A DNA stretch of 64,000 nt from an uncultured delta proteobacterium (GCA_963712115.1 CAVQGX010000046.1:32001-96000), one strand, 5' to 3'. Shown: positions 2 through 33,671, counted from the stretch's first letter. Translations and numbers: made by a program. The notes: generated by a model not told the origin, from the letters alone.

Positions 2-970
2 CTCGTCAAAGCTCTCAGCGAGGGAGGCAACCTAGAGCAAATAAGAGGATTATCCTACACAAGTGACAATCAAGTAATACATAACGCTGATCGAACCTAC
101 TCTGATGACCTTGACACCCTCCCTTTCCCGGCCAGACATCTGTTGGATATGGACAAATATCGAACATCCAAGATCGGAACCAGGAGCATCACCTCCATTC
201 TCACCAGCAGAGGCTGCCCATACCAGTGCTCTTTTTGTGCGTCGTCCAAGCTGGCAGGCACCTTCTGGAGGGCCAGATCAGTCGAATCAATCATCAAAGA
301 AATTCAATTTGTTAAAGACACTTACGGTTATCGGGCCTTTGCCTTTGTGGACGACAATTTCACCTTGAATCCCCAAAGGGTAATCGATCTCTGCAAGGAG
401 ATTTGTAAGCGTGGTTGGGATATACACTGGTGGTGCTTTTCCCGGGTTGACACTATTGTAAAAAATCCTGAGATGGTATCACTGATGTATGAGGCTGGTT
501 GTCGCTCTACCTACATTGGTATAGAGAGTAGAAACCAAGAAACTCTTGACTTTTACAACAAAAAAATTAGTGCAGACATATCCCGTGAGGCAATCTCTAT
601 TCTCAAGAACAAGAAAATAGAAATGACCGCGAGCTTCATAATTGGCGCACTCAATGAAGACAAAGAAATGGTGGAGGATACTTTACGATTTGCCAAATCC
701 CTCAATCCAAATACTGTCTCTTTTAGCATCCTCACCCCTTACCCGGGGACTGACTTGTTCGAACAAGTAAAAGACAGAATAATCACTTTCGACTGGCGAA
801 AATATGATGGTATTCACTCGGTTATAAGATTGAAACATTTCAAACCAATGCAAATCCAACTCACCCTCCTGCGTTTTTATATTTCCTTCTATCTCCGATC
901 TTTCGCATCCATCAAGGATTTTCTCAAGTTTTACCTCCGCCGAAAACTCCAATGGGGACATACCAACTAG
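2..970 (+). CDS. Radical SAM protein, probably cobalamin-binding (class B) family; 5' end lies outside the window
   Basis: Frame is open from base 2 (LVKALSEGGNLEQIRGL...DDLDTLPFPARHLL). Motifs TSRGCPYQCSFC (CxxxCxxC), FVDDNF, IGIES and LTPYPGT are typical of B12-binding radical SAM proteins. Confidence 0.85.
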   Translation, partial: LVKALSEGGNLEQIRGLSYTSDNQVIHNADRTYSDDLDTLPFPARHLLDMDKYRTSKIGTRSITSILTSRGCPYQCSFCASSKLAGTFWRARSVESIIKEIQFVKDTYGYRAFAFVDDNFTLNPQRVIDLCKEICKRGWDIHWWCFSRVDTIVKNPEMVSLMYEAGCRSTYIGIESRNQETLDFYNKKISADISREAISILKNKKIEMTASFIIGALNEDKEMVEDTLRFAKSLNPNTVSFSILTPYPGTDLFEQVKDRIITFDWRKYDGIHSVIRLKHFKPMQIQLTLLRFYISFYLRSFASIKDFLKFYLRRKLQWGHTN

Positions 971-1012
971 TGGTTTCCTTCCCACAGCTCTTTAGCGAAG
1001 CCGGATCTTATC

Positions 1013-1948
1013 TTGATGATTGAGAAAAATTATATACACCTATTCATTTTCATTATTGCTATTTATCTCACTGCGGCCACCTGCAAGCCAATACAAAGCG
1101 TGAGACCCTCGAAAAGTGAAGTACTCAAAGGCTCCTGCTTACAGCTCATGACATACAACATCAGAGTTGGAGCCGGTAGGGACGGACTGTTAACACCGGT
1201 AAAATATCTCTCCAGTTCTGAAAGCAAATTAACAAAAATCGGTCTGACAATAAGGTCTCTGGATCCAGATATCATTGCACTGCAGGAAGTCAGGGGCGCT
1301 GCCCAGGCAGAATTTCTAGCAGACTCTTTGGGCATGAACTACGTCTATCTATCCCACGAGGACTCTAGGCTCGAGTGGGGATTGGCAGTCTTATCCAGGT
1401 TCAAGATTACTGAATATTACGGAAAATTTATTCGCTACGATGAGAAAAAGCCGAGAGTGGCACTGTTATGCACAGTTGAATTGGATGGCTCGTCCATTAC
1501 TATAATCAATGTGCATTTTCATTTGGGTGATTATGATGAGCAAGTTGAAGAGACAATTAGATTAATGAGCAAGGTGACGGGACCGGTTATACTGATGGGT
1601 GATTTCAATCTAATTGATCCTGACGATGGGCTCTCCCCCATTACAAAGAAATTGGTTGATACTTGTGAGGTGGTGGACACCAAGAGTTCCCAGGAAGCCA
1701 AAGAGATAGGCACCCATAGATTCGGCTCAAAAAGGCTTGATTACATCTTTGTCGACCCTAATTATTTCTCTGTGCTGGAAGCTGGATTAGCACCAGAACA
1801 ACACAGGAGTGCCTCGGATCATATCGGCTACTTTGCCTGTGTGAGGCCAAAAAGCAAGGAGAGCGATGTTCAGGAGGCTAACCCAGAAATCCAGCAAGAG
1901 AAGGTAGAACTGCCAACCTTGCGTGGAGGTGGAGAAGTATTGGAGTGA
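1013..1948 (+). CDS. Exported endonuclease/exonuclease/phosphatase (EEP) family protein
   Basis: Motifs MTYNI, DIIALQEV, NVHF, MGDFN, RLDYIF and SDH; hydrophobic N-terminal signal. Confidence 0.85.
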   Translation: MMIEKNYIHLFIFIIAIYLTAATCKPIQSVRPSKSEVLKGSCLQLMTYNIRVGAGRDGLLTPVKYLSSSESKLTKIGLTIRSLDPDIIALQEVRGAAQAEFLADSLGMNYVYLSHEDSRLEWGLAVLSRFKITEYYGKFIRYDEKKPRVALLCTVELDGSSITIINVHFHLGDYDEQVEETIRLMSKVTGPVILMGDFNLIDPDDGLSPITKKLVDTCEVVDTKSSQEAKEIGTHRFGSKRLDYIFVDPNYFSVLEAGLAPEQHRSASDHIGYFACVRPKSKESDVQEANPEIQQEKVELPTLRGGGEVLE

Positions 1949-2102
1949 TGGAGTAATGGTAATTTCGGATCTCGGATCTCGGATTTCGGATTTAAAAACA
2001 TGAATTGGAAATCAGAAACTCAATCTAAAGTCGACAATCCGCATTCCGCATTCCCAAATCCGCAATCGAGTTGCTCCAACACTCCAGTACTCCAAGACTC
2101 CA
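1937..2102. repeat. Nested inverted tandem-repeat element (8-mer TGGAGTNN outer arms, 7-mer (T/C)TCGGAT / AATCCGC inner arms)
   Basis: tggagtga-tggagtaa ... ttcggat-ctcggat-ctcggat-ttcggat ... aatccgc-attccgc-attccca-aatccgc ... ctccaaca-ctccagta-ctccaaga-ctcca. Confidence 0.85.
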
Positions 2103-2159
2103 GGGGGATATGCAGAATGACCTGCCTCCGCATTTTGAATCACGGTACATAAGGACACA

Positions 2160-2810
2160 ATGAACGCAGTCGTTATCAGTGATTTGCACCTAGAGTCTGT
2201 CCACACTCTGTCTGGCCAGATAGCCCTTTTCATCGAAAGCTTACCTGAAGGATGCGATCTCATTCTCAACGGTGACATTATCGACAGCTCTTATCCAAAT
2301 TTGCCGCGGCAAAATCTACAAATCCTCGAGCTAATAGGGCAGGAGTCTTTTCGTAGAAATATTGTTTGGATCCGTGGAAACCATGACGACTGCTCTCTCC
2401 TTCGAAATAGGGGAAGAATCCATTTTAAACGCATCCACGCGATTGCCAACCGACTCTTGATCACCCACGGCAACGAACTCGATAAAACCAAGGCAAGGAT
2501 TCAACAGCTTCTCAGACCATTCAAGCTGATACAGTTTATCCTGGTAAAATCGGGCTTGAAACCGGTAAATGTAGCCCAATTTGCCAGTAGGTTCGAGCTT
2601 TTTTATAGGCTCTATCGAAAGAAACTCATGCTCGATGCGGTGAAATTCGCCAAAGAAAAAGGCTTTGGAGCCATTACCTGCGGTCATACGCACCACCCAG
2701 AGGATCGTAATGTCCAAGGTGTGCGTTACATCAATACCGGCGCCTGGACTGAATACCCGCCCCACTATCTAGTGGTCAATGACAGGGAGATTAGACTGAA
2801 GAGCGTCTAA
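2160..2810 (+). CDS. Calcineurin-like metallophosphoesterase, LpxH/UDP-2,3-diacylglucosamine hydrolase-like
   Basis: Motifs ISDLHL, NGDIID, RGNHD, THG, CGHTH and YINTGAW. Confidence 0.85.
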   Translation: MNAVVISDLHLESVHTLSGQIALFIESLPEGCDLILNGDIIDSSYPNLPRQNLQILELIGQESFRRNIVWIRGNHDDCSLLRNRGRIHFKRIHAIANRLLITHGNELDKTKARIQQLLRPFKLIQFILVKSGLKPVNVAQFASRFELFYRLYRKKLMLDAVKFAKEKGFGAITCGHTHHPEDRNVQGVRYINTGAWTEYPPHYLVVNDREIRLKSV

Positions 2811-2922
2811 GGGGCTGTCCCACAACCTCTCTTTTGCCCGCCTTTGTCATTCTGAGCGAAGCGAAGAATCTCATGGATTCAGGACTGGACGGCGACTCAG
2901 AATGACGTTGTGGGACAGCCTC
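2811..2922. mobile_element. MITE/REP-like element with 14-bp terminal inverted repeats and an internal 11-bp inverted repeat
   Basis: ggctgtcccacaac (2813-2826) / gttgtgggacagcc (2907-2920); internal gtcattctgag (2846-2856) / ctcagaatgac (2896-2906). Lies between convergent genes. Confidence 0.65.
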
Positions 2923-2933
2923 TCGGGGGGGAT

Positions 2934-3755
2934 TTAGACTGGGTTTAGATACTTTTCTATCGAGGTAAAGCGGAAATCAGCCAGAAGTTTGACAAGCTGC
3001 GATTTGCTCCCCCAGACACCTCCGTACAGGGCAAATTTCTTCGAGGGGGGAAGGCCGATAGAGCCCTTTCTTCCGCCGAACTCCCTGGGATGAAAATAAA
3101 AAAGTGTGGGCAGCTGGCGTCGGTTGAATTTCCGCACCCTTTGTTTAAGTATGGGGTAAGGCAAAAGCCTCAAGCCCCAGCTGCCTCCTGCGGGATAGTG
3201 GCCAAAGGGAGTCTTTAGTGTCAAGGGTGGCAATTCCCATAAGTCTCCCCTCGCTGTTTTTATCTTCCAGGGGGTACGAGGATAGGACTCGTTGCCAATG
3301 ATCTTTAGGGGAGCCAGGCTGGAGTCATAGACAAAGCCTTCTTCAGTTAGAATCTCTAAGGCCCAACTACTGCGATCGTTTATCGACCACTGGGGAGCCC
3401 GAAAACCAATTGGTCTCTTGTTTATCAACCCTGCAATACACTCAATTCCTCTGCGCAAAATCTGGCGAAAATCTTCTGGGCTCAGTTCGTAGACCAGCTC
3501 ATGATCCCAGCCGTGATAGCCAATTTCGTGTCCCATATCATGAATGCGCCGAACTAGGTCAGGATGCTTCTCCGCCACATAACCGAGTACGAAAAAAGTA
3601 GCCCTGGAGTTCGTCTTAGCGACCAAACTCAAGAGCTTCTCTGTGTCTGCAACCACGGTGGATGGAAATCTGTCCCACTTTTCCCTGGGGAGCAGATGCT
3701 CCACCTCACATATGTGGAACCAGTCTTCCAGGTCCACCGTCAGGAGATTCATCAC
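2934..3755 (-). CDS. Polysaccharide deacetylase (DUF3473-type)
   Basis: Motifs TVDLEDWFH, ATFFVLG, HEIGYHGWDH, GFRAPQWS, YDSS and FYFHPREF. Confidence 0.9.
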   Translation of the reverse strand: MMNLLTVDLEDWFHICEVEHLLPREKWDRFPSTVVADTEKLLSLVAKTNSRATFFVLGYVAEKHPDLVRRIHDMGHEIGYHGWDHELVYELSPEDFRQILRRGIECIAGLINKRPIGFRAPQWSINDRSSWALEILTEEGFVYDSSLAPLKIIGNESYPRTPWKIKTARGDLWELPPLTLKTPFGHYPAGGSWGLRLLPYPILKQRVRKFNRRQLPTLFYFHPREFGGRKGSIGLPPSKKFALYGGVWGSKSQLVKLLADFRFTSIEKYLNPV

Positions 3756-3828
3756 GCCATCGACTTTTATCGGAACTAGTTGGAGACAACAGTTAACCGC
3801 CTTGGTGGATCGTTCGGATCGAATTATA

Positions 3829-3925
3829 GTTCAGCCGGTTTTGCCGGTTAAGCCAGTTTGCTAGAAAGAAAGTCTGAAATCAGGCTTTCCACTGGCTCTA
3901 ACTGGCCTAACCAACGGACTGGCTT
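3829..3925. repeat. Inverted ~9-bp tandem-repeat array
   Basis: ttcagccgg-ttttgccgg-ttaagccag ... actggctct-aactggcct-aacc...actggct. Confidence 0.55.
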
Positions 3926-5307
3926 TATTTCCGTCTAACCTGCATATGTTCCCACAGCGGACCCTTGAGACCGAAGCGTCGCAGTTTTTCTTGTAGTCTT
4001 CTGTCGATGTTCACGTTTGAGCCCGGCAGAATCCAGTTCTTGTTCTCCTCCACATGTTCATGCAAAATATCGAGGACGAAAGGACGCACTGACTCAGCCA
4101 GATAGAAAGTCGGTTTCAACATAGACTCGTCTTCAATTATTAAATCTTCTTGGGAGGCAAAATCCGCCAGCTTTGTCCCTGGGAAAAGCCTTATCCCCAC
4201 CATGGCAATTACCGCAGTCGGTGACACCTCGTCCATCAGGGCAAGCGTCTCTAGGAGAGTTTCCTTGCTTTCCCCCGGTCCCCCGAAAACTAAGGAGTGG
4301 CAGGAGGGCAGCCCTACTTTGTGGCAGAGTTCCGATGCTCGCCGGACCTCCTCTTTGGTAAATGACTTTCCCAATCCTTTCAAAATCAAGTCGGAGCCTG
4401 CGTCAGTGCCAAACTCTACTCCGGTGCAGCCAGACTCTTTCATTAGAGACAGCAAAGACTCGGTTACAAACTGTGGATGGAGGTAGCAACTCCACTTCAC
4501 CTCTAGGTTTCTCTGCAGAAGTTCCTTGCATATAGATTGGGCATGGTGTGGTGGAAAATTGAACACATTATCAACCATAAAAACAGTGTCGACACCCTGA
4601 TCATAAAGCTGCTGGATTTCCTCCCCAACCTGCTTTGGCGGTCGCACCCGAATCTCTTTCCCCTCAATCAAGGGGTAAGTACAGTAGACACATGAAAAGC
4701 CACAGCCTCTTTTTGTCTGGACATTTCCCATTCCGCCAAAACGAAGGTACGCTTCATTGTCAAGCTTTTCCCTGCGGGGCATGATGATGTCCTGAATGGG
4801 AAACCGCTGTGGTGGAATTGGTTTTGGGGGTTTGCTGGAATGTGTAGTAATGACGCCGGGCACCTGATCAAGAGACTGGCCACGCTCCAACTGGTCAAGG
4901 AACCGAACAAGAGGAATCTCGCCTTCACCCACGATACCATAGTCTGCTTCCAGATCATTCAATATCTGTAGTGGCATGAGGCTGAATCCTGAACCCCCGA
5001 GAACGATGGGTGCGGAGGTAAGTTGTCGCAAATGTGAAACCACCTTCCGGTAAAGAGGCAAATAGGAATGGGTATTTGGATAGGCCACATTGTCTACATT
5101 GCGCAGGGAGAGTCCAATTACCTCAGGGCCAAAATTAGTCACGGCCCGCTCCAGAGCTTCGCCGTAATCATCAACAAAGCAGAGATCCAATACCTGGTGC
5201 TCATGGGAGCTTCGCTCGAGGGCACCACTCAAAAAGGCCAGCCCAAGAGGGAATACTGGATCCGGTAACATCTCTGTGTTAGGTGAGATCAGGAGAATAC
5301 GCATCAT
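3925..5307 (-). CDS. Lipid-biosynthesis-associated B12-binding radical SAM protein
   Basis: N-terminal B12 domain (PVFPLGLAFL, SLRNVDN, LGGSGFS, GEGE); QTKRGCGFSCVYCTYP; VDNVFN; C-terminal GPLW. Resembles the TIGR04072-type family, from memory. Confidence 0.85.
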   Translation of the reverse strand: MMRILLISPNTEMLPDPVFPLGLAFLSGALERSSHEHQVLDLCFVDDYGEALERAVTNFGPEVIGLSLRNVDNVAYPNTHSYLPLYRKVVSHLRQLTSAPIVLGGSGFSLMPLQILNDLEADYGIVGEGEIPLVRFLDQLERGQSLDQVPGVITTHSSKPPKPIPPQRFPIQDIIMPRREKLDNEAYLRFGGMGNVQTKRGCGFSCVYCTYPLIEGKEIRVRPPKQVGEEIQQLYDQGVDTVFMVDNVFNFPPHHAQSICKELLQRNLEVKWSCYLHPQFVTESLLSLMKESGCTGVEFGTDAGSDLILKGLGKSFTKEEVRRASELCHKVGLPSCHSLVFGGPGESKETLLETLALMDEVSPTAVIAMVGIRLFPGTKLADFASQEDLIIEDESMLKPTFYLAESVRPFVLDILHEHVEENKNWILPGSNVNIDRRLQEKLRRFGLKGPLWEHMQVRRK

Positions 5308-5337
5308 ACCGCCTTCAGGTCTGCGATTTTGCCTCAG

Positions 5338-5456
5338 CTGGAATGATGGAATAATGGAATATTGGAATTCTGGGAAGTAAAAGCAGATAAGCTATTTTCT
5401 AATTGGTCTAATTCCTCTCGACCCATCATTCCATTATTCCTCTATTCCATCATTCC
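5338..5456. repeat. Inverted 8-mer array (TGGAATAA variant)
   Basis: tggaatga-tggaataa-tggaatat-tggaattc-tggg ... cccatcatt-ccattatt-cctctatt-ccatcattcc. The right arm contains the stop codon of the CLF-like gene. Confidence 0.8.
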
Positions 5457-6685
5457 TGTTGCCTTGCAATGACGGTGCAAGCGCTCCCACCGCCAAAAGT
5501 AGAACCGAGGGCCATTCCGGCGACAAGAGTCTTCTCAGTTGCAGAGGCAAATCTTTGAGCTTTCCCAAAAAGACCAGTCAGGCTAGGTCCTCGCGCGGCC
5601 GGCGGAATATTTCCCTCGGTTAATGAAAGTAAAATAGCTGCCACGCTCAGGAGGCCAGCGGCACCGAATTCGCCAACCAAATAGCGAAGGGGCAGCCTGG
5701 GGATCTGATGCCACTGATGACCAAAAACCTGCTCCAAGACCGCAAGTTCGGCATTTTCGAGCTCATCAACCCCATTAGCGGCTAGCCCAATGATGCCAAC
5801 CTCTTCCACATTAATCTTGGCTTCTTTCAACGCTGCCCCCATCCCTTGGGCCATTGACCTGCCATCCGTTTCATAGTGCGCCTGAGTTACAACTCCACTT
5901 GTTAGCGTTAGCGACAAAATAGTTCCATAACTCTTTTTCTCAGGCCTCTCCGCAAAGTCCGCCCGCTCCAACACTAAGCAGGTAGCCCCTTCGCCGGCAA
6001 TGAATCCTTTACCTGTGGGAAATTGGCTGGGCTGGAGTGTTTTTCGCTGCCGCACGGGCTTCAAAGCACGAACCGAGGCAAGGCTGTGAAATAGGATGCT
6101 GGAGAGTTCGTCAACCCCTCCTACCAGCACAACGTCCGCTTGATCCTGCTCCAACAAGGCAATTCCGTAGGCCAGGGCACATTCACCGGAGAGGTGATTT
6201 TGGCAAAAGGTGCTATTGGGACCTTTCAGCCCGTGATACATGGCGACGTGGCTGGCAGGAGCGTTGGGCACCGTATCTGGAAAAAGTATTGGCTCAGCTG
6301 CCTGGGGACCATGATCCAAAAGGCTTACAAAAAACCCATCCGTCTGCTCCGTGCTGCCGAAGGCGGTTCCAAAGACCACGCCGATCCGGCGGCGATTCAG
6401 CTCCGAGATTTTCAAACCACTATCCCTTATGGCTTCGATGCTGGCGGCAACCGCAAGGCGAGACTGGCGACTTAGTCTGCGGTAAAAGCGAGGTTCCATA
6501 AAATCCTTAGCACTGAAATTGTCTATCTCAGCCCCAAGATTGCAGGCATATTTGCTAGTATCGAATCCCCTAATCGGTGCTATGCCAGACTTACCCCTGA
6601 CCAGCTCATGCCAAAAAGCTGATTTTCCAATACCCAGCCCGTTTAACATGCCCAAGCCGGTTATGATGATTGGTGCTTTTGCCAT
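5450..6685 (-). CDS. Beta-ketoacyl synthase-like chain length factor (catalytically inactive KS)
   Basis: KS fold motifs are present, but the TACSS Cys position reads QNHLS, HGTGT reads AANGV and GH reads GE. Confidence 0.8.
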   Translation of the reverse strand: MAKAPIIITGLGMLNGLGIGKSAFWHELVRGKSGIAPIRGFDTSKYACNLGAEIDNFSAKDFMEPRFYRRLSRQSRLAVAASIEAIRDSGLKISELNRRRIGVVFGTAFGSTEQTDGFFVSLLDHGPQAAEPILFPDTVPNAPASHVAMYHGLKGPNSTFCQNHLSGECALAYGIALLEQDQADVVLVGGVDELSSILFHSLASVRALKPVRQRKTLQPSQFPTGKGFIAGEGATCLVLERADFAERPEKKSYGTILSLTLTSGVVTQAHYETDGRSMAQGMGAALKEAKINVEEVGIIGLAANGVDELENAELAVLEQVFGHQWHQIPRLPLRYLVGEFGAAGLLSVAAILLSLTEGNIPPAARGPSLTGLFGKAQRFASATEKTLVAGMALGSTFGGGSACTVIARQQE

Positions 6686-6699
6686 GGTTTTTCTAGATT

Positions 6700-7920: not shown

Positions 7921-7984
7921 TTACCATATCCTATCGTTGCAGGGCTTCACCAACCTGGCAGTAGCCACATGTTGGCACGCCCTT

Positions 7985-8118
7985 TGGAGTAATGGAGTGT
8001 TGGAGCGTTGGAGTATTGCGAGATTTTATTAATCTCAAGAACTCCTTTATCCCAGTACCCCATTACTCCATACTCCAGTACTCCAGTACTCCAATACTCC
8101 AATACTCCAATACTCCAG
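7985..8118. repeat. Inverted 8-mer tandem array (TGGAGTAN / NTACTCCA)
   Basis: tggagtaa-tggagtgt-tggagcgt-tggagtat ... cattactc-catactc-cagtactc-cagtactc-caatactc x3. Confidence 0.9.
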
Positions 8119-8121
8119 ATC

Positions 8122-8853: not shown

Positions 8854-8854
8854 T

Positions 8855-9340: not shown

Positions 9341-9346
9341 ATTATT

Positions 9347-10061: not shown

Positions 10062-10104
10062 CGGTTGTTCCTCCTTACTCAGGTGTTTGTATCATGACCG
10101 GGCC

Positions 10105-10122: not shown

Positions 10123-10130
10123 CAAACTAT

Positions 10131-24756: not shown

Positions 24757-24840
24757 AAGATTGCACATTTGAGATTTAAGATTGTAGATTTTTGATTTGA
24801 GTATAGGATTTGGAACTATCAATCTGCAATCTTAAATTTT
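24757..24840. repeat. 7-mer (AGATTNT / AATCTGC) inverted element, same family as 31879 and 40961
   Basis: agattgc...agatttaagattgtagattttt ... aatctgcaatcttaaatttt. Confidence 0.65.
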
Positions 24841-26319: not shown

Positions 26320-27201
26320 ATGCGTGAACATTTCCTGGATAATCCATTTTGGTATAGGCAGGCTCTAAAAACGGTTCGCTCACTGCCTCCAGCCGCCTCC
26401 TACGGTTTGGCACGATTTGTTGCTGGCCTTGCCTATCTTTTTTCGCCACGGGATCGGCGTCATGTTTCAAACAATTTTGACCTTATCTTCAACGGCTATA
26501 ACCCCCCTGCTGGTAAAAAGTTGCTACTGTGGAGATTTTTTCAGAATTACGGCATCTACGTTGTCGATTTCTTTCGTCTTCTGAACATGACTTTGGAAGA
26601 AAGCCAGGCATTCGCTCAACTTTACCAGGGTCGCCAACATATCGATGCAGCCTTGGACAGAGGGAAAGGGGCGGTGCTCCTCACTGCTCATCTGGGCCAT
26701 TGGGAGATTGGAGGTCTGGGGCTCCGGGCCATGGGCTATCCGGTCAACGTAGTAGCCTTAAAGCACAACACCACATTCACCAATGCTCTGATAAATGTAA
26801 TGCGCATGCGTCATGGCATGCGGATTATTGAAGTGGAGGAGTCAGCCTATGGCGCCATTGAGTTGGTCAAGGCACTGAATCGAAATGAGGTTGTGGCTGT
26901 TTTGGCTGACAGGGTTTTTGCTGCCGACAGATCCGAGGTTACCACTTTTTTCAATCGTCCGGTGCACCTGCCAGTTGGCCCGGTGCTGCTGGCAATGGCT
27001 GCTCGTGCACCGATTGTTCCGGCCTTTTCGATTATGGAGGCTCCCGGACGCTATCGTGGCGTCGTCGAACCCCCCTTGGAACTAAAATATGGCCCGGATC
27101 GTAGAGAAGCATTGCAACACAACTTGCGACAAGTAGCTAAAGTTTTTGAAAAATACATCCGCCGCTATCCGGACCAGTGGTACATAGTGGATCCGTTATG
27201 A
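26320..27201 (+). CDS. Lipid A/phosphatidylinositol-mannoside-type (LpxL family) acyltransferase
   Basis: LLTAHLGHWE, LADR, FFNRP..P.GP, YPDQW. Confidence 0.88.
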   Translation: MREHFLDNPFWYRQALKTVRSLPPAASYGLARFVAGLAYLFSPRDRRHVSNNFDLIFNGYNPPAGKKLLLWRFFQNYGIYVVDFFRLLNMTLEESQAFAQLYQGRQHIDAALDRGKGAVLLTAHLGHWEIGGLGLRAMGYPVNVVALKHNTTFTNALINVMRMRHGMRIIEVEESAYGAIELVKALNRNEVVAVLADRVFAADRSEVTTFFNRPVHLPVGPVLLAMAARAPIVPAFSIMEAPGRYRGVVEPPLELKYGPDRREALQHNLRQVAKVFEKYIRRYPDQWYIVDPL

Positions 27202-27301
27202 GTATTGGAGTACTGGAGTAGTGGAGTAATGGTCCAAAACTTAAAGCACCTGTGAAACCCAATACTCCCACACTCCATTACTCCATTACTCCATCACTCC
27301 C
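27200..27301. repeat. Inverted 8-mer array (TGGAGTAN / NTACTCCA)
   Basis: gagtat-tggagtac-tggagtag-tggagtaa-tgg ... caatactcc-cacactc-cattactc-cattactc-catcactcc. Confidence 0.9.
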
Positions 27302-27316
27302 AAAAAAGTAATTGGT

Positions 27317-28048
27317 ATGAATGAGAAATCTTGGATTAATAGGTCAAAAGCTTTGACTCTTTTGCTCTGTTTAGGACTCATTCTGGTTGGCACTTTTGCC
27401 ATTACCTCTGAGGTTGGAAAGGCTGGAACTCATTTGACCGCGGCAGAAGTTCTGGATCAGCTGCAGGCCAAAGCAAAGGCATTGAAAAGTCTTGAAGGTT
27501 CTTTTGAACAAAGGAAATACTCCCGGCTTCTGGTAAGGCCCATTGAGTCGGCGGGCAAACTTTTCTGGCAGCCACCTGGTCGCTTCCGCTGGGAAGTGGT
27601 TCGACCTGCCCTTCTAACCCTAGTGGTGAGGGAAGATAAAATTCTGCTCCTTTACCCAGACCTGAAGAAAGTGACTCTTTATCGTGGACCGTCGGGGGTA
27701 GGATTTTTGGATCGATTCACCGGTGCGACCGGTGATCCGCAAACTTTTCAGAGCCAATATGCGATAGAAGTCGAACTGGTCGCCAAAGGGGAAGATATTA
27801 GATGGATACAGATGAACATGGAACCGAAATCTGCCGAGCATGCTCGTTATTTCAAACGGCTGGAAGTTAAAATAGATCCAGAAACCTGGCTACCAAATGA
27901 GATCGCCATCTTAGAGGGCAACGATGACTGGACCCTTATCTATCTGTCAAACTTGATAGAAAATGCCAACCTTTCAGACGGCCTATTTAGCGTTGAGCCG
28001 CCGGAAGGTTTTCAGGTTCAGAGTTATCAGTCCGGGAGACGGCCATGA
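27317..28048 (+). CDS. LolA-like periplasmic lipid/lipoprotein carrier
   Basis: Signal peptide; SLEGSFEQRK, GKLFWQPPGRFRWE, LFSVEPPEG. Confidence 0.85.
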   Translation: MNEKSWINRSKALTLLLCLGLILVGTFAITSEVGKAGTHLTAAEVLDQLQAKAKALKSLEGSFEQRKYSRLLVRPIESAGKLFWQPPGRFRWEVVRPALLTLVVREDKILLLYPDLKKVTLYRGPSGVGFLDRFTGATGDPQTFQSQYAIEVELVAKGEDIRWIQMNMEPKSAEHARYFKRLEVKIDPETWLPNEIAILEGNDDWTLIYLSNLIENANLSDGLFSVEPPEGFQVQSYQSGRRP

Positions 28049-28974
28049 AAGGCTGCGGCTTCTTGTTTCCAGGCCAGGGGGCCCAATATGTGGGTATGGG
28101 TCGTGATCTAGTCGAAAGGTTCGCTGAGAGTGAGGATCTGCTCAAGCGAGCCGAACTGCATCTTGATTTGCCCCTCGGAGAGATCATGTTTTCCGGCCCT
28201 GAGGAACGGCTCCATGAAGATCTCAACGCACAACTGGCAGTCTATACCGTAAGCTGCATGGTGGCCGATTTCCTGGCAAATAAATCCATTAGGGCAGCAA
28301 CGCTCGCACCCTATAGCTCCGGCATATATGGGGCCGCCTACGGAGCCGGAGTTGTGGACTTCGAAACCGGCCTCAACCTCATAGTAGAAGCCGACCGTTG
28401 TATCAATGAGGCCAACAGCCAGGGTGGTATGGCGGTCGTGCTCGGGCTCTCACTCGCAGAGGTGGAGGAGATGTGCGCAAGGGTGGAGGGGCAGGTTGAA
28501 GTGAGCATAGTAAACACTCGACATCAAATCATCGTCTCCGGCGAGGGGCCGGCTCTAGATGGGCTGCTAAAACTGGCAGCGGACTCAGAAGCCCTGAAGA
28601 CAGATCGGCTCCCTGCGGCGGCACCTTACCACTGTAGTCTCCTTACCTCGGCCGATCACTGTCTTGCTAAGAAGATTGCCAAGATCCCAATGAATGAGCC
28701 CCATACTCCTATTCTCTCTTACATCGACCAAAAACCATTAGTTAAAGCAGATCAGGTGGCGACGTTGCTCTCCATCCAGCTTCGAAGTCAGGTTCAGTGG
28801 GTAGGGGTAGTTGAGGAATTGGTCCGGCAGAATCTGGGACCTATGGTTGAAATTGGACCCGGCCAGATGCTTGGTCGCTCGGTAAGGTGGATTAACCGCC
28901 AGGCCCAGGTGCTTTACACTGATACAGCGGTGGCTCTGGAAAACACCGTCAAAAGCCTCCAAGATTCAAACTGA
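28045..28974 (+). CDS. FabD-like acyltransferase with an atypical active site
   Basis: FLFPGQGAQYVGMG, PYSSG (for GHSxG), APYHCSLL, EIGPGQML. Confidence 0.85.
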   Translation: MKGCGFLFPGQGAQYVGMGRDLVERFAESEDLLKRAELHLDLPLGEIMFSGPEERLHEDLNAQLAVYTVSCMVADFLANKSIRAATLAPYSSGIYGAAYGAGVVDFETGLNLIVEADRCINEANSQGGMAVVLGLSLAEVEEMCARVEGQVEVSIVNTRHQIIVSGEGPALDGLLKLAADSEALKTDRLPAAAPYHCSLLTSADHCLAKKIAKIPMNEPHTPILSYIDQKPLVKADQVATLLSIQLRSQVQWVGVVEELVRQNLGPMVEIGPGQMLGRSVRWINRQAQVLYTDTAVALENTVKSLQDSN

Positions 28975-28989
28975 CCTGGTCATAGAAAA

Positions 28990-30720
28990 ATGGAAAAACT
29001 AATGTCGCCTCATAGACTCTGGCTATTCATCCTACTTCTAGTTCTGCTCTCCTGTACTCGTGAACGAATGACCGTCACAGGGGCTGAGCGCTTGTACGGC
29101 AAGAATAAGGTACAAGATACCAATTACGTCTGGAAGGAGATTCAAGGGGATGGCTATCGGGTTATTTATCCGGAACAGTTGAGAAGGCGAGCCCTCGACG
29201 TGGCCCATATTTATGGAGCCCACCTTGGACGTATCAGCCAAGATCTGGATCTCCCCTTTGACAAGACCATTCCCGTATTTATTTACCCTTCCCAGAAAGA
29301 GTATGAGACCACGAACATTGTAACTGGGTTAGTAAGAGGAAGCGGCGGTTTCACTGAATTTTTTAAAGAGAGAGTTGTATTTCCCGTAGCAAGCAATGAT
29401 AAACGTCTGCAGCGGTTGGCTCTGCACGAGATCACCCACGCTGTCCAACTCAGGTACCTCCTAGACGGTCCTTACCGCTCACTGCAGATCATCCTCACCG
29501 GTGTGCTCTCGCCTCTGTGGTTCATGGAAGGGGTTGCTCAATATGAATCTAATTCTTGGGACTCTACCACTGCCATGTATGTTCGGGATGCGGTCATGGA
29601 TCATAGACTCATTCCCCTTAACCAATTGCGAGGTTTTAGCCATTTGCCCCCCCACCAGATACGTCTGGCCTACTACCAGAGTGATCTTTTCATTCAGTTT
29701 CTGGTTGACACCTATGGCCAAGATACCATCCCCCGTCTCCTCCGGCTGATAAAAAATAAGCTTAACCTTCGCAGCGCTCTCCATCAGGTTACCGGCAAGG
29801 ATCCCAATCACCTGGAGTGGGCTTGGCGAGAATATGCCAATAGTCGGCTCCGCGTGGGCGGAGAGGGGTGGCAAGATCCATTTAACCAAGTCCAGCTTCT
29901 CACCGCCAATAAGGGCTGGAATCTTTTTCCTACCTATAGTCCCGACGGCAGCAGAATTGCTTTCTTATCCGATTGGGAAAATGAATCATTCGAGTTTTCC
30001 CTTTACCTATTGGAAAGGTCAACCGGTCGGCTCACCAGGCTGCAAGAACGGTATTTGTACCCTGCTCCTTTGGGCTGGTCTCACGATGGCACCCGGCTGG
30101 TATTTGTCAGTGATCAAGATAACCGCAGCGATCTTTTTCTTTACGATGTGGACCGGAAAAAGGCAAAACCTATCAAGCAGGACATTAGAGTAAATAACTT
30201 TCCAGCTTTTCTCCCAGGAGATGTGGAGGTGGGATTCGTTGCAACAGTTGATGGTTTTGCCGATATCTATAAAATCAACCTGGAGAATGGCAAGCTCACA
30301 CCTTTGACCCAGACCACAAACGACGAAGCCTATCCCCATTGGTCTAAAGATGGCAATTTTTTAATATTCTCCAGAGAGTACCAGATGCAATTCGATCTGG
30401 TACTCAAAGATCTTTTAAGCGGCAAAGAAACCCGCCTTACCAACACGGCACAAGATGAAATATGGCCGTTTTTCCTGCCTGAGGCCAAGGCAATCCTCTT
30501 CGTCTCCGACGAGACTGGCATCTTCAATCTCCACCTCCTGGATCTGCAGAGCGGTGCCATTCACCGTCTGTCCGAAGTGATAGGTGGAACATTCTCCCCC
30601 CGGGTCAGCCCTGATGGAAAACGCTTGCTCTTCAGTTATTTTCGCCACGGACAATACAAGATTTTTGAAGGTACCATGTTGCCATGGGAGACGGGAGTCG
30701 CAAATGGTAGCAGGCCTTGA
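28990..30720 (+). CDS. Lipoprotein with a peptidase-MA-like (HExxH) domain and TolB/PD40 propeller
   Basis: Lipobox LLSC; LHEITHAVQ...PLWFMEGVAQY; repeated PxxSPDGxxxxF. Confidence 0.85.
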   Translation: MEKLMSPHRLWLFILLLVLLSCTRERMTVTGAERLYGKNKVQDTNYVWKEIQGDGYRVIYPEQLRRRALDVAHIYGAHLGRISQDLDLPFDKTIPVFIYPSQKEYETTNIVTGLVRGSGGFTEFFKERVVFPVASNDKRLQRLALHEITHAVQLRYLLDGPYRSLQIILTGVLSPLWFMEGVAQYESNSWDSTTAMYVRDAVMDHRLIPLNQLRGFSHLPPHQIRLAYYQSDLFIQFLVDTYGQDTIPRLLRLIKNKLNLRSALHQVTGKDPNHLEWAWREYANSRLRVGGEGWQDPFNQVQLLTANKGWNLFPTYSPDGSRIAFLSDWENESFEFSLYLLERSTGRLTRLQERYLYPAPLGWSHDGTRLVFVSDQDNRSDLFLYDVDRKKAKPIKQDIRVNNFPAFLPGDVEVGFVATVDGFADIYKINLENGKLTPLTQTTNDEAYPHWSKDGNFLIFSREYQMQFDLVLKDLLSGKETRLTNTAQDEIWPFFLPEAKAILFVSDETGIFNLHLLDLQSGAIHRLSEVIGGTFSPRVSPDGKRLLFSYFRHGQYKIFEGTMLPWETGVANGSRP

Positions 30721-31867
30721 TGGTTGCCGGGCAAAAACCGGCAAGATTCAGGTGACAAAGCCATTTGGGCCGCGCAGACTATTGTTTTTTGTGCTGGTGG
30801 CCCTTCTCCCCTTTTTCTTAGTCTTGCCCTGCCAGGCCGAAACCTTTAAAGAGCAAGACTACCGTGACAGCTTTTCCACTGACTTCTTTTTTCCTTACCT
30901 CGACTACAACGAAAAGGATGGAATCATTCCCGGTGTGGATTGGCAGGCCAGCAATTACACCGGAGACCATGTACTTAGCTTCCGTGGTGGCATCGGGACA
31001 AAAAGTGGCAAGGAGCAACTGTTGGCAGGCTACACTTACCTCGGTTGGTATCCCGCTGTTGGCTTAAACCTCTTCGATAAAAACACTTTTTTCGGTGACC
31101 TAAAGGACACAGGCAACGATAAGGATGACTGGCGCAGAGAGGTTGGTGGCAGTCTTACTTTTAGCTTTCCTCTCGATTTGTACCACAGGATAGTTCCCGG
31201 CTATGAAATTGCATGGGTGGATTTGCCTGATGAATGGCAGCGGCTCAATGGTCTCATTCTCAGTTTGGTCCGTGATACTGCCGATTATTACCTCATGGAG
31301 ATTATTTCCGGCAGTCAAGTGAATCTCACCGCAAAATATGGTAACCAGGCCCTGGGAAGTGAGAGCACCTTTCAAAGTTATGCCGGAGATCTGTGGCATT
31401 ACGCCAACCTGGACCTGGAGGAATATTTTGGAGCCGGTCAACGGCTGGTAACATCATTGCGGATCCATGGTGGGGTTAAAAAGGATGATCCCAGATTGTT
31501 TGTTTTGGGAGGCGAGACTAGTCTGCGAGGCTACGACTTCAACGAGTTTTCTGGTGAGAAGATGTGGGCTGCCAGTCTAGAACTGCGCTATCCCTTCTTG
31601 GTCATAGACCGCACTACCACCGCTTGGGATCTCTTTCATTTTCACCAGCTGCTCGGTGTTGCTTTTGTGGACAGTGGTCAAATCTGGCGAGACTATAACG
31701 ATAGTAGCTCCATATCCGGTGCGGAAGTCGGCGTGGGTGGTGGAGTCCGACTGCAAATGTTCGTATTTGGCAAAATTCCCTTTGAGGTAGGTTTTGACCT
31801 TGGACAGAGCGTAACTGACCGCGACCGCAATCCAAAAGTCTATTTGATTTTGAGGCTGGGAGCTTAA
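30704..31867 (+). CDS. Omp85 (BamA/TamA-like) beta-barrel without POTRA domains
   Basis: Signal peptide; LGGETSLRGYD loop-6 motif, ASLELRYP, AFVDSGQIW, VGVGGGVR. ATG at 30704 follows GGGAG. Confidence 0.8.
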   Translation: MVAGLDGCRAKTGKIQVTKPFGPRRLLFFVLVALLPFFLVLPCQAETFKEQDYRDSFSTDFFFPYLDYNEKDGIIPGVDWQASNYTGDHVLSFRGGIGTKSGKEQLLAGYTYLGWYPAVGLNLFDKNTFFGDLKDTGNDKDDWRREVGGSLTFSFPLDLYHRIVPGYEIAWVDLPDEWQRLNGLILSLVRDTADYYLMEIISGSQVNLTAKYGNQALGSESTFQSYAGDLWHYANLDLEEYFGAGQRLVTSLRIHGGVKKDDPRLFVLGGETSLRGYDFNEFSGEKMWAASLELRYPFLVIDRTTTAWDLFHFHQLLGVAFVDSGQIWRDYNDSSSISGAEVGVGGGVRLQMFVFGKIPFEVGFDLGQSVTDRDRNPKVYLILRLGA

Positions 31868-31878
31868 GGATTAACTGA

Positions 31879-31995
31879 GGATTGCTGATTTTAGATTGTA
31901 GATTTCAGATTTACCCATTGTGCATTCGCGGAATGATGAAATTCCGAAATACTCAATCTGCAATCTGCAATCTTAACTCTTAAATTTTAAATACC
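31879..31995. repeat. Dispersed MITE-like element with 7-mer arms (copy related to 40961-41050)
   Basis: agattgtagatttcagatttacccattgtgc...atgaaattccgaaatactcaatctgcaatc matches 40976-41048. Confidence 0.75.
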
Positions 31996-32024
31996 GTTAC
32001 TCCAGAAAGTACAAGAAATAGCCT

Positions 32025-33671
32025 ATGAAACTTCTTTGTTGGCAAGGCTCACCGGGCAAAGCACCTCTGATCCTTTTAATACTAGTCTGTTTACTCCTGA
32101 TTACGCTCAGTACCGGGAGAGCCACAGCTGGAGAGAATAATCCAAAGATAATCATTCTCGAATTTCACGGTTTGAAGAGAGAAATTCTGGCTGAAAGCTT
32201 AGAGGATCTGCCTAATTTCCGGGAAATTATTAAGGGGGTCAATGACGACCAGGCTTATGTCTATCTACCCCAAGTCTTTACCACCATTCCCGCTGCCTCC
32301 CAGCCAGCTGTAACCTCCATGTACACCGGACTTTATCCTCAACGCACCGGGGTGGTTTCTACTATTTGGTTTGACCGAGCCACCTACCAAATCCGCACTC
32401 TCATCTCCTATTCACAAGACAGGATCAACAACATTTTAAAGGCTGGGGAGGTCAAGTCCCTGTTTGACTACGTCGGTCAATCAGGCAAACGATCCATGAC
32501 CACTATGCTCATGCTCACCAAAGGGGCTAATTGGTCAATTAAATCCGGCATGTTTTTCTGGGGTAATGCTTCTGTTCTTAATGCTTTTCGCCATGGTAAA
32601 TGGGTTCCTAACAGCCATTACGTGGACAACAAAACCCTCGACGGTTTTCTCACTGGCCATGTATCGGCTTATAGGAGAAGTCTTGCAGGTATCTACCAAT
32701 ATGACCATCTGATCCCAGATGTAATGGTAGTCCAACTGTTGGGTACTGACCTGTTTTCCCATTATCCCGTGGGTGATTTCAAAGAACGTCAGGCTTCCAT
32801 GAACGAAATCCAGAAGCATTACGTTCAAACCGTACTGGATCCGCTCATGGGCAGGTTGATCAGTGCTCTAAAAGAGTTGGGAACCTATGAGGACACCATT
32901 TTTATCCTGGCTTCGGAACACGGGTCCATCCGCATCCAAAAACATATTCCCGATAACACCTTAGCTCATAGTCTCCGCCACCATTTCAAGCTGCCAAATT
33001 GGTTAAGAAGCAACAGTCGGGCGGATGCTGTCATCATGCTAGGGGCTTGCACCAAAGAGGTGTACCTCAAGAACCGGCAAACCGGCAAATGGATGGATCC
33101 ACCCCGAATGCTGGCAGATGTCAAGCCGGCGGTGGATCTTATCCTGGCCAACCCGGAGGTGAAAACCTCTATGAAGGCAATGGTTGTACGCCAGTATCCT
33201 GGTGAACGGCACGAGGGTTTGGCAGAGAAAGACCAGTGGTGGTTCTTTGACTGGCAAGCATATCAGGCGGCCGGCGGCGAAGCTATTGCATTCCGTCAGG
33301 CCTTGCGGCCTCTAAGTGAACTGGCAGATAACTTTGAATTGGGCCAATATCTGCTTCAGGGGCTCAGAAGACAATACACCAGAGAGACGGCTCCGGACAT
33401 AAAGCTGATCAACAAGAAAGGATATTATTTCGAGCGTGACTTCGACAAGTATGGACATCACGGCAGTTACTATCCCGACGACTGCATCGTGTCGTTCTGG
33501 GTGGCAGGACCCGGACTGTCGCCAGTTGTCCCCGGCCAACATATCTATGAGGCTCATGCTTCAACATTGGACCTGGTTCCCATGGTAACTCACCTATTGG
33601 GAATACCCATACCTGAAGGGCTAGACGGATCTAATCCCCTGGCAAACTTGCAGACCAATACTGATCAATAA
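32025..33671 (+). CDS. Exported alkaline phosphatase superfamily (phosphodiesterase/NPP-like) protein
   Basis: ILEFHGL, PAASQP..SMYTGLYP, TDLFSH, LASEHG, HHGS, TLDLVP. Confidence 0.75.
   Translation: MKLLCWQGSPGKAPLILLILVCLLLITLSTGRATAGENNPKIIILEFHGLKREILAESLEDLPNFREIIKGVNDDQAYVYLPQVFTTIPAASQPAVTSMYTGLYPQRTGVVSTIWFDRATYQIRTLISYSQDRINNILKAGEVKSLFDYVGQSGKRSMTTMLMLTKGANWSIKSGMFFWGNASVLNAFRHGKWVPNSHYVDNKTLDGFLTGHVSAYRRSLAGIYQYDHLIPDVMVVQLLGTDLFSHYPVGDFKERQASMNEIQKHYVQTVLDPLMGRLISALKELGTYEDTIFILASEHGSIRIQKHIPDNTLAHSLRHHFKLPNWLRSNSRADAVIMLGACTKEVYLKNRQTGKWMDPPRMLADVKPAVDLILANPEVKTSMKAMVVRQYPGERHEGLAEKDQWWFFDWQAYQAAGGEAIAFRQALRPLSELADNFELGQYLLQGLRRQYTRETAPDIKLINKKGYYFERDFDKYGHHGSYYPDDCIVSFWVAGPGLSPVVPGQHIYEAHASTLDLVPMVTHLLGIPIPEGLDGSNPLANLQTNTDQ

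Follow-up and report, generated by a model that had tools for sequence, protein, structure and literature searches.

We analysed a 64,000-nucleotide stretch of DNA (the window) from an uncultured delta proteobacterium (GCA_963712115.1, CAVQGX010000046.1:32001-96000), in which an earlier reading of the sequence, hereafter the original prediction, had singled out positions 2-33671 as a large locus for radical-chemistry lipid biosynthesis and export. Gene identities were assigned from a listing of open reading frames (ORFs) and from Pfam and NCBIfam scans of the window proteins. By these scans the locus holds 28 intact genes and one pseudogene, as follows.

2-970, plus strand: BchE/HpnJ-like cobalamin (B12) radical S-adenosylmethionine (SAM) enzyme of orthogroup C (g01; Pfam Radical_SAM), its 5' end cut by the window edge
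1013-1948, plus strand: endonuclease/exonuclease/phosphatase (EEP)-family phosphoesterase with a signal or anchor N-terminus (Pfam), assigned to the cluster from position alone
2160-2810, plus strand: calcineurin-like metallophosphoesterase (Pfam), likewise assigned from position alone
2934-3755, minus strand: polysaccharide deacetylase (Polysacc_deac_1 and DUF3473; 220 bits against TIGR03006, under the cutoff of 276), ending the minus-strand operon
3925-5307, minus strand: B12-binding radical SAM protein, TIGR04072, orthogroup A (g05; NCBIfam, tree)
5450-6685, minus strand: inactive ketosynthase of the chain-length-factor (CLF) kind (Pfam, active-site alignment)
6700-7920, minus strand: active FabF-like ketosynthase (KS; active-site alignment, tree)
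8122-8853, minus strand: family 2 glycosyltransferase (GT2) of the lipid-phosphate sugar transferase type, corresponding to the ApeJ N-half and ArnC/PpgS-like (Pfam, NCBIfam, aryl polyene comparison)
8855-9340, minus strand: FabZ-like hotdog protein in the place of a dehydratase (DH), catalytic His replaced by Arg, Glu kept (alignment)
9347-9772, minus strand: 4HBT thioesterase (TE), ApeK-like (Pfam, aryl polyene comparison)
9759-10061, minus strand: dedicated acyl carrier protein (ACP), ApeE-like (NF006617, aryl polyene comparison)
10131-10886, minus strand: 3-oxoacyl-ACP reductase (KR; TIGR01830)
11210-12415, plus strand: ATP-grasp ligase (Pfam), opening the divergent plus-strand operon
12791-13339, plus strand: small membrane protein (Sm_multidrug_ex; Pfam), present in 8 of 80 related loci
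13531-14913, plus strand: radical SAM/SPASM enzyme bearing a helical domain at its N-terminus (g16; Pfam), the best-conserved marker of the cluster family
14910-16568, plus strand: secreted CsgG/LpoB-like and NHL propeller protein (Pfam, N-terminus)
16853-19405, plus strand: MMPL/RND lipid exporter, HpnN-like and ApeM-like, with 12 transmembrane segments (g18; Pfam, NCBIfam, aryl polyene comparison)
19528-20535, plus strand: BcrAD/BadFG ATPase or 'activase' (g19; TIGR00241, 206 bits against a cutoff of 125)
20530-22755, minus strand: fused alpha/beta DUF2229 and HGD-D iron-sulfur protein with a PlsA/Ger-type architecture (g20; Pfam, homologue alignment)
22837-23214, minus strand: PEGA-domain lipoprotein (Pfam), found elsewhere only in the closest relative, locus L001
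23295-24176, minus strand: class I SAM methyltransferase (Pfam), with generic matches only in a PDB sequence search
24091-24666, minus strand: SRPBCC lipid-binding/cyclase-fold protein (Pfam)
24832-26164, minus strand: pseudogene of an orthogroup B B12 radical SAM enzyme (frames, blastx, tree)
26320-27201, plus strand: LpxL-type (Lip_A_acyltrans) acyltransferase, counterpart of the ApeJ C-half (Pfam, aryl polyene comparison)
27317-28048, plus strand: LolA-like periplasmic lipid carrier (Pfam, NCBIfam)
28045-28974, plus strand: FabD-like acyltransferase (AT; Pfam, NCBIfam)
28990-30720, plus strand: lipoprotein with MA-peptidase and TolB-like propeller (Pfam), assigned from operon spacing alone
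30584-31867, plus strand: Omp85-family outer-membrane barrel (Pfam), assigned from operon spacing alone
32025-33671, plus strand: secreted alkaline-phosphatase-superfamily phosphodiesterase (Pfam), of uncertain membership

The genes are closely spaced and fall into four operon-like blocks. The first (plus strand) runs from the truncated g01 through the EEP phosphoesterase and the metallophosphoesterase; the second is a minus-strand operon read from the KR at 10886 to the deacetylase at 2934; the third is a divergent plus-strand operon (11210-20535, ATP-grasp ligase to activase) followed by a minus-strand set read from 24666 to 20530 (SRPBCC protein to g20); and the fourth (plus strand, 26320-33671) runs from the LpxL-type acyltransferase to the phosphodiesterase. 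Several cluster proteins carry envelope signal or lipoprotein N-termini, all cluster genes other than 24832-26164 look intact, and the genes beyond ~34.8 kb are housekeeping genes unrelated to the cluster. Of the 34 ORFs scanned between 2 and 34788, 29 have a Pfam domain, the exceptions being two overlapping Arg-rich ORFs at 12451-12837, two pseudogene fragments and orf288 (33922-34788). Five proteins (g05, ACP, KR, KS and activase) pass curated NCBIfam cutoffs. Each gene class named in the original prediction was found at its place, including the GT2, LpxL-type, ATP-grasp, methyltransferase, SRPBCC, deacetylase and export genes, and its three phosphoesterases are those at 1013-1948, 2160-2810 and 32025-33671. 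The Pfam and NCBIfam scans of 2-34788 revealed neither an enoyl reductase nor an AMP-binding enzyme, which bears out the predicted absence of enoyl reductase, acyl-ACP synthetase and aryl-starter genes. Rfam (gathering threshold) and ARAGORN searches of the whole window detected no RNA family or tRNA, and thus no cobalamin riboswitch. Promoter-like and terminator-like matches in 1-20000 were no better than in shuffled sequence, a terminator-like hairpin at 16620-16643, after the CsgG/NHL gene, being the only sensibly placed one.

Genomes were scanned with g16 as the anchor. Of the 599 stretches matched, 593 encode a relative; we kept the 80 best loci (given L numbers where they must be told apart) with up to 10 kb of flank on each side. 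Gene content was counted by tblastn with all window proteins and by ORF clustering. Lipid genes lie in 42 of the 80 loci, all from Desulfobacterota lineages or Nitrospirota except L073, from an uncultured bacterium. Thirty-seven loci have at least 8 kb on both sides and 24 of these carry lipid genes: GT2, ACP and B12 radical SAM genes in all 24, TE and LpxL-type acyltransferase in 23, AT in 19, deacetylase in 18, KS and CLF in 13, KR in 12, ATP-grasp in 10, activase and DUF2229 in 9 and, by tblastn, MMPL in 4 and LolA in 3. The other 13 hold none of these genes and come mostly from other phyla (Actinomycetota, Synergistota, Omnitrophota and others); among them, L023 is a second Geobacteraceae copy in which a B12 radical SAM gene adjoins the g16 homologue. 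The CsgG/NHL protein recurs in 3 of the 80 loci by ORF clustering, to which tblastn adds L005, L006 and L002, and the sole tblastn homologue of the EEP phosphoesterase in the 10-kb flanks of other loci is a 27% match in L074.

In L001 the region from the deacetylase through the SRPBCC gene is syntenic with the window at 70-94% identity. The order in Geobacterales is deacetylase, GT2, SPASM radical SAM, LpxL-type acyltransferase, ACP, radical SAM, AT, TE, TIGR04072, KR, KS, CLF, DH, LolA and MMPL, and in Syntrophales-type loci it is ATP-grasp, GT2, SPASM radical SAM, DUF2229 (two genes), activase, radical SAM, LpxL-type acyltransferase, ACP, AT, TE and two further radical SAM genes. The recurrence of the same genes in an order that differs between lineages argues for functional linkage. 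The clustering is thus beyond chance, and the locus belongs to a gene-cluster family that is conserved in Desulfobacterota and Nitrospirota, with a core, also present in Geobacterales, of GT2, ACP, TE, LpxL-type acyltransferase, B12 radical SAM and SPASM radical SAM genes. The co-occurrence of radical SAM, activase and some export genes with the fatty acid synthesis (FAS) core in other genomes, on which the original prediction depended, was found among the loci with full flanks.

We compared the window proteins with those of the aryl polyene (ape) cluster of E. coli CFT073 (blastp, E 1e-3). The ACP is 45% identical to ApeE (3.5e-21), the KR 37% identical to ApeQ, the KS 32% identical to each of ApeO and ApeR, the TE 28% identical to ApeK and the MMPL protein 26% identical to ApeM over 319 aa; the GT2 matches the N-half of ApeJ (25% over 232 aa, 3.7e-17) and the LpxL-type enzyme its C-half (27% over 224 aa, 5.4e-13). 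At this threshold the window DH, LolA-like protein and methyltransferase had no ape match, the DH matching neither ApeP nor ApeI, and the CLF did not match ApeC. ApeJ attaches GalNAc to a phosphoglycerolipid, after which it transfers the ApeE-bound chain onto the sugar, and the aryl-polyene lipid APEL is presumed to be exported by ApeM/L/N (bioRxiv 10.1101/2020.12.19.423268). The ape clusters (E. coli CFT073, Xenorhabdus doucetiae) and the window share an ApeE-like ACP, a KS with an inactive partner, a KR, a hotdog protein, a 4HBT thioesterase and LolA-like and MMPL export proteins, and the GT2 and LpxL-like functions, fused as ApeJ in E. coli, are separate genes in the window. Since ACP, TE, GT2 and LpxL-type genes form the invariant core of the family, they are best read as an ApeJ-like lipid-anchoring module.

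The differences are nevertheless extensive. The window has one active KS, one ACP and one DH, whereas ape has two of each (ApeO/ApeR, ApeE/ApeF, ApeI/ApeP), and its CLF is a full-length, inactive FabF-like protein in contrast to the short ApeC. ApeD (PlsC-type), ApeN and ApeG have no window counterpart, and the lack of any AMP-binding domain in 2-34788, and hence of an ApeH-type adenylating enzyme, indicates that there is no aryl starter. Additions relative to ape are two to four cobalamin radical SAM genes, the SPASM radical SAM gene, the deacetylase, the ATP-grasp ligase and the activase/DUF2229 enzyme. The ape architecture that the original prediction assigned to the locus therefore holds for the KR, MMPL, ApeJ, ApeK and ACP counterparts and fails for the paired KS, ApeC, paired ACP, DH pair and starter; its further statement that this is not a standard aryl polyene cluster agrees with a KS nearer to FabF and with the missing aryl-starter enzyme. 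At this level of sequence similarity the KR, MMPL, ApeJ and ApeK counterparts appear to be analogous parts rather than orthologues.

The KS retains the active-site Cys-His-Lys-His, kept in 20 of 21 aligned KS rows, and in the CLF the Cys is replaced by His and both active-site His residues are lost; across 17 of 17 CLF rows the Cys is gone (His in 6, Glu in 2, Phe in 9), as are both His. The FabZ catalytic His aligns with Arg in the DH and is absent in 11 of 12 orthologue rows (L059 has it), with the Glu kept. These alignments support the earlier calls of an inactive CLF-like KS and a His-less DH. The KS satisfies the subfamily model NF005589 (423 bits, cutoff 387) and shares 40% identity with E. 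coli FabF. In a tree, the KSs of the cluster family group together, separate from E. coli FabF, ApeO and ApeR, and the CLFs make up a second clade, so that neither falls inside a characterised clade with a known product among the few reference sequences used, which included no anammox sequence. Against PDB sequences the KS scores best with 9s5h_B (338 bits, 6.6e-100), presumably the anammox KS/CLF-like heterodimer, but Thermus FabF scores nearly as high (331 bits), so the relation to 9s5h_B is not specific. The CLF scores higher against FabF (166 bits) than against 9s5h_C (149 bits), and the DH lies nearer to ordinary FabZ (8.6e-18) than to the anammox FabZ entries 7qv0 and 8ayi (~7e-11). The ACP passes NF006617 (72 bits, cutoff 70) with a conserved DSL motif, its best PDB sequence match being 9ls6_A (3e-14), and the KR passes TIGR01830 (304.9 bits, cutoff 297.75). 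Among KS, KR, DH and AT, the KR alone reaches its housekeeping equivalog cutoff; the others fall short (KS, 428 against 494 for TIGR03150; DH, 74 against 155 for TIGR01750; AT, 179 against 261 for TIGR00128).

The cobalamin radical SAM proteins of the family resolve in a tree into orthogroups A (TIGR04072), B (LpxL-adjacent, broken in the window) and C (BchE/HpnJ-like, including 2-970). The g05 protein satisfies TIGR04072, 'lipid biosynthesis B12-binding/radical SAM protein', with 410.3 bits against a cutoff of 360 and model positions 1-441 of 443 aligned, in line with the original prediction that a TIGR04072-type enzyme is clustered with FAS II genes. The cutoff was missed by g01 (92 bits) and by the pseudogene fragment (27.5 bits). 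The best-scoring curated models include HpnJ for g01 (172 bits, cutoff 578) and HpnN for g18 (270 bits, cutoff 752); g01 scores 190 bits against BchE and, like its HpnJ score, this is far under cutoff. The N-terminus of g01 lies outside the window, and its B12 type is predicted from the full-length members of orthogroup C, which carry the B12 domain. The prediction of four radical SAM genes, three of them cobalamin-type, thus needs qualifying: four are present, but one is cut by the window edge and that at 24832-26164 is a pseudogene. This gene is interrupted by a frameshift (near 25.70 kb) and by two TGA codons in frame (25447-25449, 25195-25197), the N-terminal B12 domain and the radical SAM core lie in different frames, and by blastx the region aligns in two frames with an intact B12 radical SAM protein whose gene adjoins LpxL-type and ACP genes elsewhere. 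Selenocysteine read-through of the two TGA codons was considered and rejected, in view of the accompanying frameshift and the poorly aligning C-terminal part. The CLF (2051-3165) and MMPL (13138-15505) genes of L001 are each split into two ORFs, likely by frameshift or assembly error; this shows that assembly errors occur in such data and is a caveat on the pseudogene call, although two stop-creating substitutions are unlikely to be errors.

The SPASM radical SAM protein g16 belongs to a highly conserved family, with 3596 proteins at E <= 1e-20 among 8000 candidates (53-97% identity in the 120 matches listed) and 989 representative clusters at E <= 1e-30. Its nearest ESM Atlas clusters are radical SAM/SPASM proteins of the same length, commonest in Bacillota. 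An AF2 model (pLDDT 95.3) most resembles generic SPASM enzymes (SkfB, SuiB and anSME; TM-score 0.50-0.56), the fold of GDGT-MAS/Tes (7tol) ranking 40th with a TM-score of 0.40, and the sequence matches Tes (E 2.3e-5) over the radical SAM core. Family members also occur outside the cluster. In about ten actinomycetotal loci, including L034, the homologue (42-49% identity) stands alone beside thrS-infC-rplT-pheST. In Zixibacteria (L026 9950-12812, L029 5759-10887) it adjoins a g01-type B12 radical SAM gene whose product is 43-47% identical to that of 2-970, in L029 together with a methyltransferase, a TP_methylase and a PAP2 phosphatase, and FAS-like genes are absent from both stretches. In L073 (1782-6810) it follows a 760-aa MFS/LpxL-type acyltransferase fusion and a GT4. 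The Geobacterales also carry a second copy in another lipid setting (L022 203-9990, L023 1608-11332), where the order is an Aas-like AMP-binding/PP-binding/acyltransferase fusion, an MFS transporter, an ORF without assignment, an MlaA lipoprotein, B12 radical SAM, methyltransferase and SPASM radical SAM. Pairing with a B12 radical SAM gene outside the cluster is thus seen in L026, L029, L030 and L022/L023. These settings give good support to a lipid role of g16.

The g19/g20 pair had been described as an acyl-CoA dehydratase/activase. Both genes are present, and by domain content the pair is better read as a split, distant relative of the PlsA/Ger-type class. The g20 protein consists of two homologous halves with conserved Cys, which are separate genes in Syntrophales-type loci, and in most matches it is colinear over 79-98% of its length with the C-half of ~1400-aa proteins that carry two BcrAD_BadFG domains and DUF2229 (BBD proteins), at 21-27% identity in 63 matches (21% to a Desulfobacterales one). 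In Sahonero-Canavesi et al. (PMC13159169), a set of B and D/H domains describes the ether-forming Ger/PlsA enzymes and a fused BBD core is said to be conserved in all alkyl-ether producers. The window departs from this core, with one BcrAD_BadFG domain on the separate gene g19 and DUF2229 and HGD-D on g20. The reaction would be an ATP-driven reduction or dehydration, for which ester-to-ether conversion is one candidate.

The original prediction linked the locus to the ladderane-type loci of anammox bacteria and deltaproteobacteria and saw in it the best candidate for an undescribed system. The first point is upheld by the TIGR04072 match and by Rattray et al. (2009, PMC2649909), in which FASII clusters with radical SAM genes are common to Kuenenia, Desulfotalea, Geobacter and Pelobacter and inactive FabF paralogues are tabulated (Table 2), including Phe163 in G. 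sulfurreducens NP_951518, a substitution that agrees with the Cys-to-Phe change in our Geobacterales CLF rows. Those clusters and the window share ACP, FabZ-like, glycosyltransferase, deacetylase, methyltransferase and MMPL-type membrane protein genes; the window lineage adds the activase/DUF2229 pair, the ATP-grasp ligase, the CsgG/NHL protein and the PEGA protein, and lacks the phenylacetyl-CoA-ligase-like gene found in Rattray-type and anammox clusters. Anammox FabF homologues form a KS/CLF-like heterodimer, and anammox Cluster I comprises ACP, FabZ, KS, inactive KS and a cobalamin radical SAM gene, according to a preprint (10.64898/2026.05.19.726425). The window has the same arrangement, a TIGR04072 radical SAM gene adjoining a KS and a catalytically dead KS as in Kuenenia-type clusters and Cluster I, with ACP and FabZ-like genes present. 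The phytoene-dehydrogenase-like flavoenzyme of Cluster I is missing, no phytoene-dehydrogenase-like or amine-oxidase Pfam domain being found in the 34 ORFs of 2-34788. The second point does not stand, since the cluster kind was reported in 2009 (PMC2649909) and 'ladderane' biosynthetic gene clusters are routinely flagged in Desulfobacterota; a Cariaco Basin preprint reports them as expressed there and calls their function unknown. Our literature searches found no paper assigning a product to non-anammox clusters of this type, and none that mentions TIGR04072.

Two further systems resemble parts of the locus. Amino-sugar lipid tailoring is carried out in the hopanoid pathway by the HpnI glycosyltransferase, the HpnK deacetylase, the HpnJ B12 radical SAM enzyme and the HpnN MMPL protein, and elsewhere by ArnC/ArnD. 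The window is alike in its logic, in which an N-acetyl amino sugar on a lipid would be deacetylated, reworked by a cobalamin radical SAM enzyme and exported by an HpnN-like MMPL protein; the cluster contains no hopanoid genes. Ger/PlsA, with which the window shares its BcrAD_BadFG, DUF2229 and HGD-D set, differs in being fused, the window being split and at most 27% identical to the fused BBD proteins. The g16 protein is an anaerobe-restricted SPASM-type radical SAM enzyme whose phyletic spread is that reported for homologues of the bacterial membrane-spanning lipid synthase Mss, which PMC13159169 delimits by E <= 1e-50 and at least 30% identity to WP_129545148.1 or Tmari_0825. Mss is claimed to have a catalytic architecture like that of Tes (GDGT-MAS) (PMC13274423); Tes was not singled out by the fold search with the g16 model.

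From these comparisons we consider it about an even call that the locus makes a specialised glycolipid of the envelope by an aryl-polyene-like route, in which anaerobic radical chemistry replaces the aryl starter. An unusual fatty chain is probably built, altered by radical chemistry without oxygen, attached to an amino-sugar lipid and sent to the outer membrane. By homology, the FabD-like AT would load the dedicated ApeE-like ACP, on which the KS/CLF heterodimer and the KR would extend the chain; full reduction of this chain is improbable, since an enoyl reductase is absent and the FabZ-like protein is without the usual His. The GT2, of the lipid-phosphate sugar-transferase type, and the LpxL-type enzyme would act, again by homology, as the two halves of ApeJ, the latter joining the chain to an amino-sugar phospholipid head. 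The remaining assignments of order, substrate and reaction are more tentative. By analogy with ArnC/ArnD, the deacetylase may free the sugar amine, to which the ATP-grasp ligase may then add a new acyl group. The cobalamin radical SAM enzymes (TIGR04072, BchE/HpnJ-like) and the SPASM radical SAM enzyme could act on unactivated carbons of the chain or the head group by methylation, ring closure or cross-linking. The activase and DUF2229/HGD-D protein might, in some lineages, add an ATP-driven reduction or dehydration, possibly from ester to ether as in PlsA/Ger. Finally, transport of the product to the outer membrane would fall to the MMPL and LolA-like proteins, possibly helped by the Omp85 and TolB-like proteins.

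Several observations weigh against this pathway. No product has been seen and every step past the ACP is a prediction. With the radical SAM gene at 24832-26164 broken, the product of this genome may be simpler, or there may be none, one tailoring step having perhaps been lost. The ape identities are low (25-45%), ApeB and ApeD join the DH, LolA and ApeC in lacking a match, and MMPL and LolA genes were counted in few loci, a count limited by flank length and low identity. The absence of KS/CLF and KR within 10 kb in 11-12 of the 24 loci means that the dedicated chain-building part is not universal, and in other phyla members of the SPASM radical SAM family also stand by themselves among housekeeping genes, as would suit an enzyme whose substrates are ordinary membrane lipids. 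In addition, comparative support is lacking for the genes that lie beyond 10 kb of the anchor (1013-2810 and 28990-33671), whose membership comes from position or operon spacing.

The main rival to the glycolipid pathway is a remodelling of bulk membrane lipids that yields branched, ether-linked or membrane-spanning lipids resembling branched glycerol dialkyl glycerol tetraethers (brGDGT). The SPASM radical SAM enzyme would then couple or cross-link tails, as do bacterial Mss and archaeal Tes, the cobalamin radical SAM enzymes would add mid-chain methyls or rings, and the activase/DUF2229 pair would turn esters into ethers in the manner of Ger/PlsA. PMC13159169 lends this some weight, in that g19 and g20 together hold the B, D and H domains by which Ger/PlsA is defined and the phyla with g16 homologues all fall within its reported list of Mss homologues. 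The colinearity of g20 with BBD proteins, the pairing of g16 homologues with B12 radical SAM genes outside the cluster, their proximity to Aas-like, MFS, MlaA and PAP2 genes and their solitary occurrence in other phyla, as might be expected of a general lipid enzyme, point the same way. However, the likeness to Mss, Ger and PlsA is drawn from published descriptions, g20 is distant from the BBD proteins, a single separate B domain replaces the fusion reported for ether producers, and the g16 model is nearer to generic SPASM enzymes than to Tes, with which the sequence match covers the radical SAM core. The activase/DUF2229 pair is moreover confined to 9 of the 24 loci, and remodelling leaves the dedicated ACP, TE, GT2 and LpxL-type genes unexplained. 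We regard it as unlikely. A combination of the two ideas is more doubtful still: the SPASM and cobalamin radical SAM pair might be an oxygen-free editor of lipid tails, capable of C-C coupling, ring formation and mid-chain methylation, which with the split Ger-like reductase, the ACP line and ApeJ-like anchoring would give a hitherto unseen class of branched, cyclised, ether-linked or tail-coupled envelope glycolipids in Desulfobacterota and Nitrospirota.

The locus could also be a mosaic of unrelated neighbours, in which a FAS-like operon, a module resembling those for ribosomally synthesised and post-translationally modified peptides (RiPPs; ATP-grasp, SPASM radical SAM and small exporter), an activase system and envelope proteins happen to adjoin. 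ATP-grasp and SPASM radical SAM enzymes are a common RiPP pairing, the peripheral genes (1013-2810, 14910-16568, 22837-23214 and 28990-33671) have little or no comparative support, and the promoter and terminator scan did not rise above shuffle frequency. The close packing in four operon-like blocks speaks against a mosaic, as does the position of the SPASM radical SAM gene, between GT2 and LpxL-type genes in Geobacterales and between GT2 and DUF2229 genes in Syntrophales-type loci, and its co-occurrence with GT2, ACP, TE and LpxL-type genes in 23-24 of the 24 loci. No small conserved peptide ORF was seen beside g16. On these grounds we rejected the RiPP reading of the ATP-grasp/SPASM pair and consider the mosaic very improbable. 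Least likely of all, and by our estimate barely credible, is the synthesis of a ladderane or ladderane-like cyclobutane lipid, a reading suggested by the TIGR04072 label and by the 'ladderane' class of antiSMASH. The g05 match, the parallel with the gene set of anammox Cluster I (10.64898/2026.05.19.726425) and the KS match to 9s5h_B favour it; yet the near-equal KS score of Thermus FabF, the CLF and FabZ-like proteins that lie nearer to FabF and ordinary FabZ, and the missing phytoene-dehydrogenase-like gene all tell against it. Desulfotalea psychrophila, despite a syntenic cluster, had no ladderanes according to PMC2649909; the hosts are not anammox bacteria, and ladderanes are not expected.

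Other features of the window stand apart from these questions. At the right-hand border, orf288 (33922-34788) encodes a secreted protein of 288 aa with no Pfam or NCBIfam match and weak, sub-threshold HEAT-repeat leads only in the ESM Atlas (score <=0.88). The spacer between the ATP-grasp and small membrane protein genes (12416-12790) is 58% GC and folds strongly (-151.5 kcal/mol for 375 nt), its stretch at ~12515-12790 having no Rfam match and no second copy in the window; only the first 99 nt match L001, which makes it look like an insertion of ~270 nt. A second lipid-related group at 49111-53201 (minus strand) comprises a short-chain dehydrogenase/reductase, a Pfam-less ORF, an Old-Yellow-Enzyme-type FMN oxidoreductase and FabH; the group lies 15 kb past the cluster and is positionally unlinked, but a starter KS and a reductase could conceivably come from it. 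A small radical SAM protein (295 aa) is encoded at 45680-46567 (minus strand), between the genes for a DinB-type polymerase and an MFS transporter.

This kind of cluster has been known from bioinformatics since 2009 (PMC2649909) and is routinely flagged, while the literature we found assigns it no product; the activase/DUF2229 pair, the ATP-grasp ligase and the CsgG/NHL protein are modules that the 2009 description does not contain. The Cariaco preprint indicates that such clusters are widespread in anoxic sediments and expressed in situ. Automatic tools give them the 'ladderane' label even though their hosts are not expected to make ladderanes, and knowledge of the product would correct this mis-annotation. 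It would also give a function to the TIGR04072-type enzymes, which are prime suspects in the unsolved ladderane pathway as well. The presence of the conserved core in Geobacterales offers tractable relatives, rather than an uncultured lineage, as an experimental route. If the lipid-tail editing idea were true, the family would be a possible anaerobic source of brGDGT-like or mid-chain-methyl biomarker lipids. More generally, the product might show how strict anaerobes branch, cyclise or etherify their lipids in the absence of oxygen, a matter relevant to where sedimentary biomarker lipids come from.

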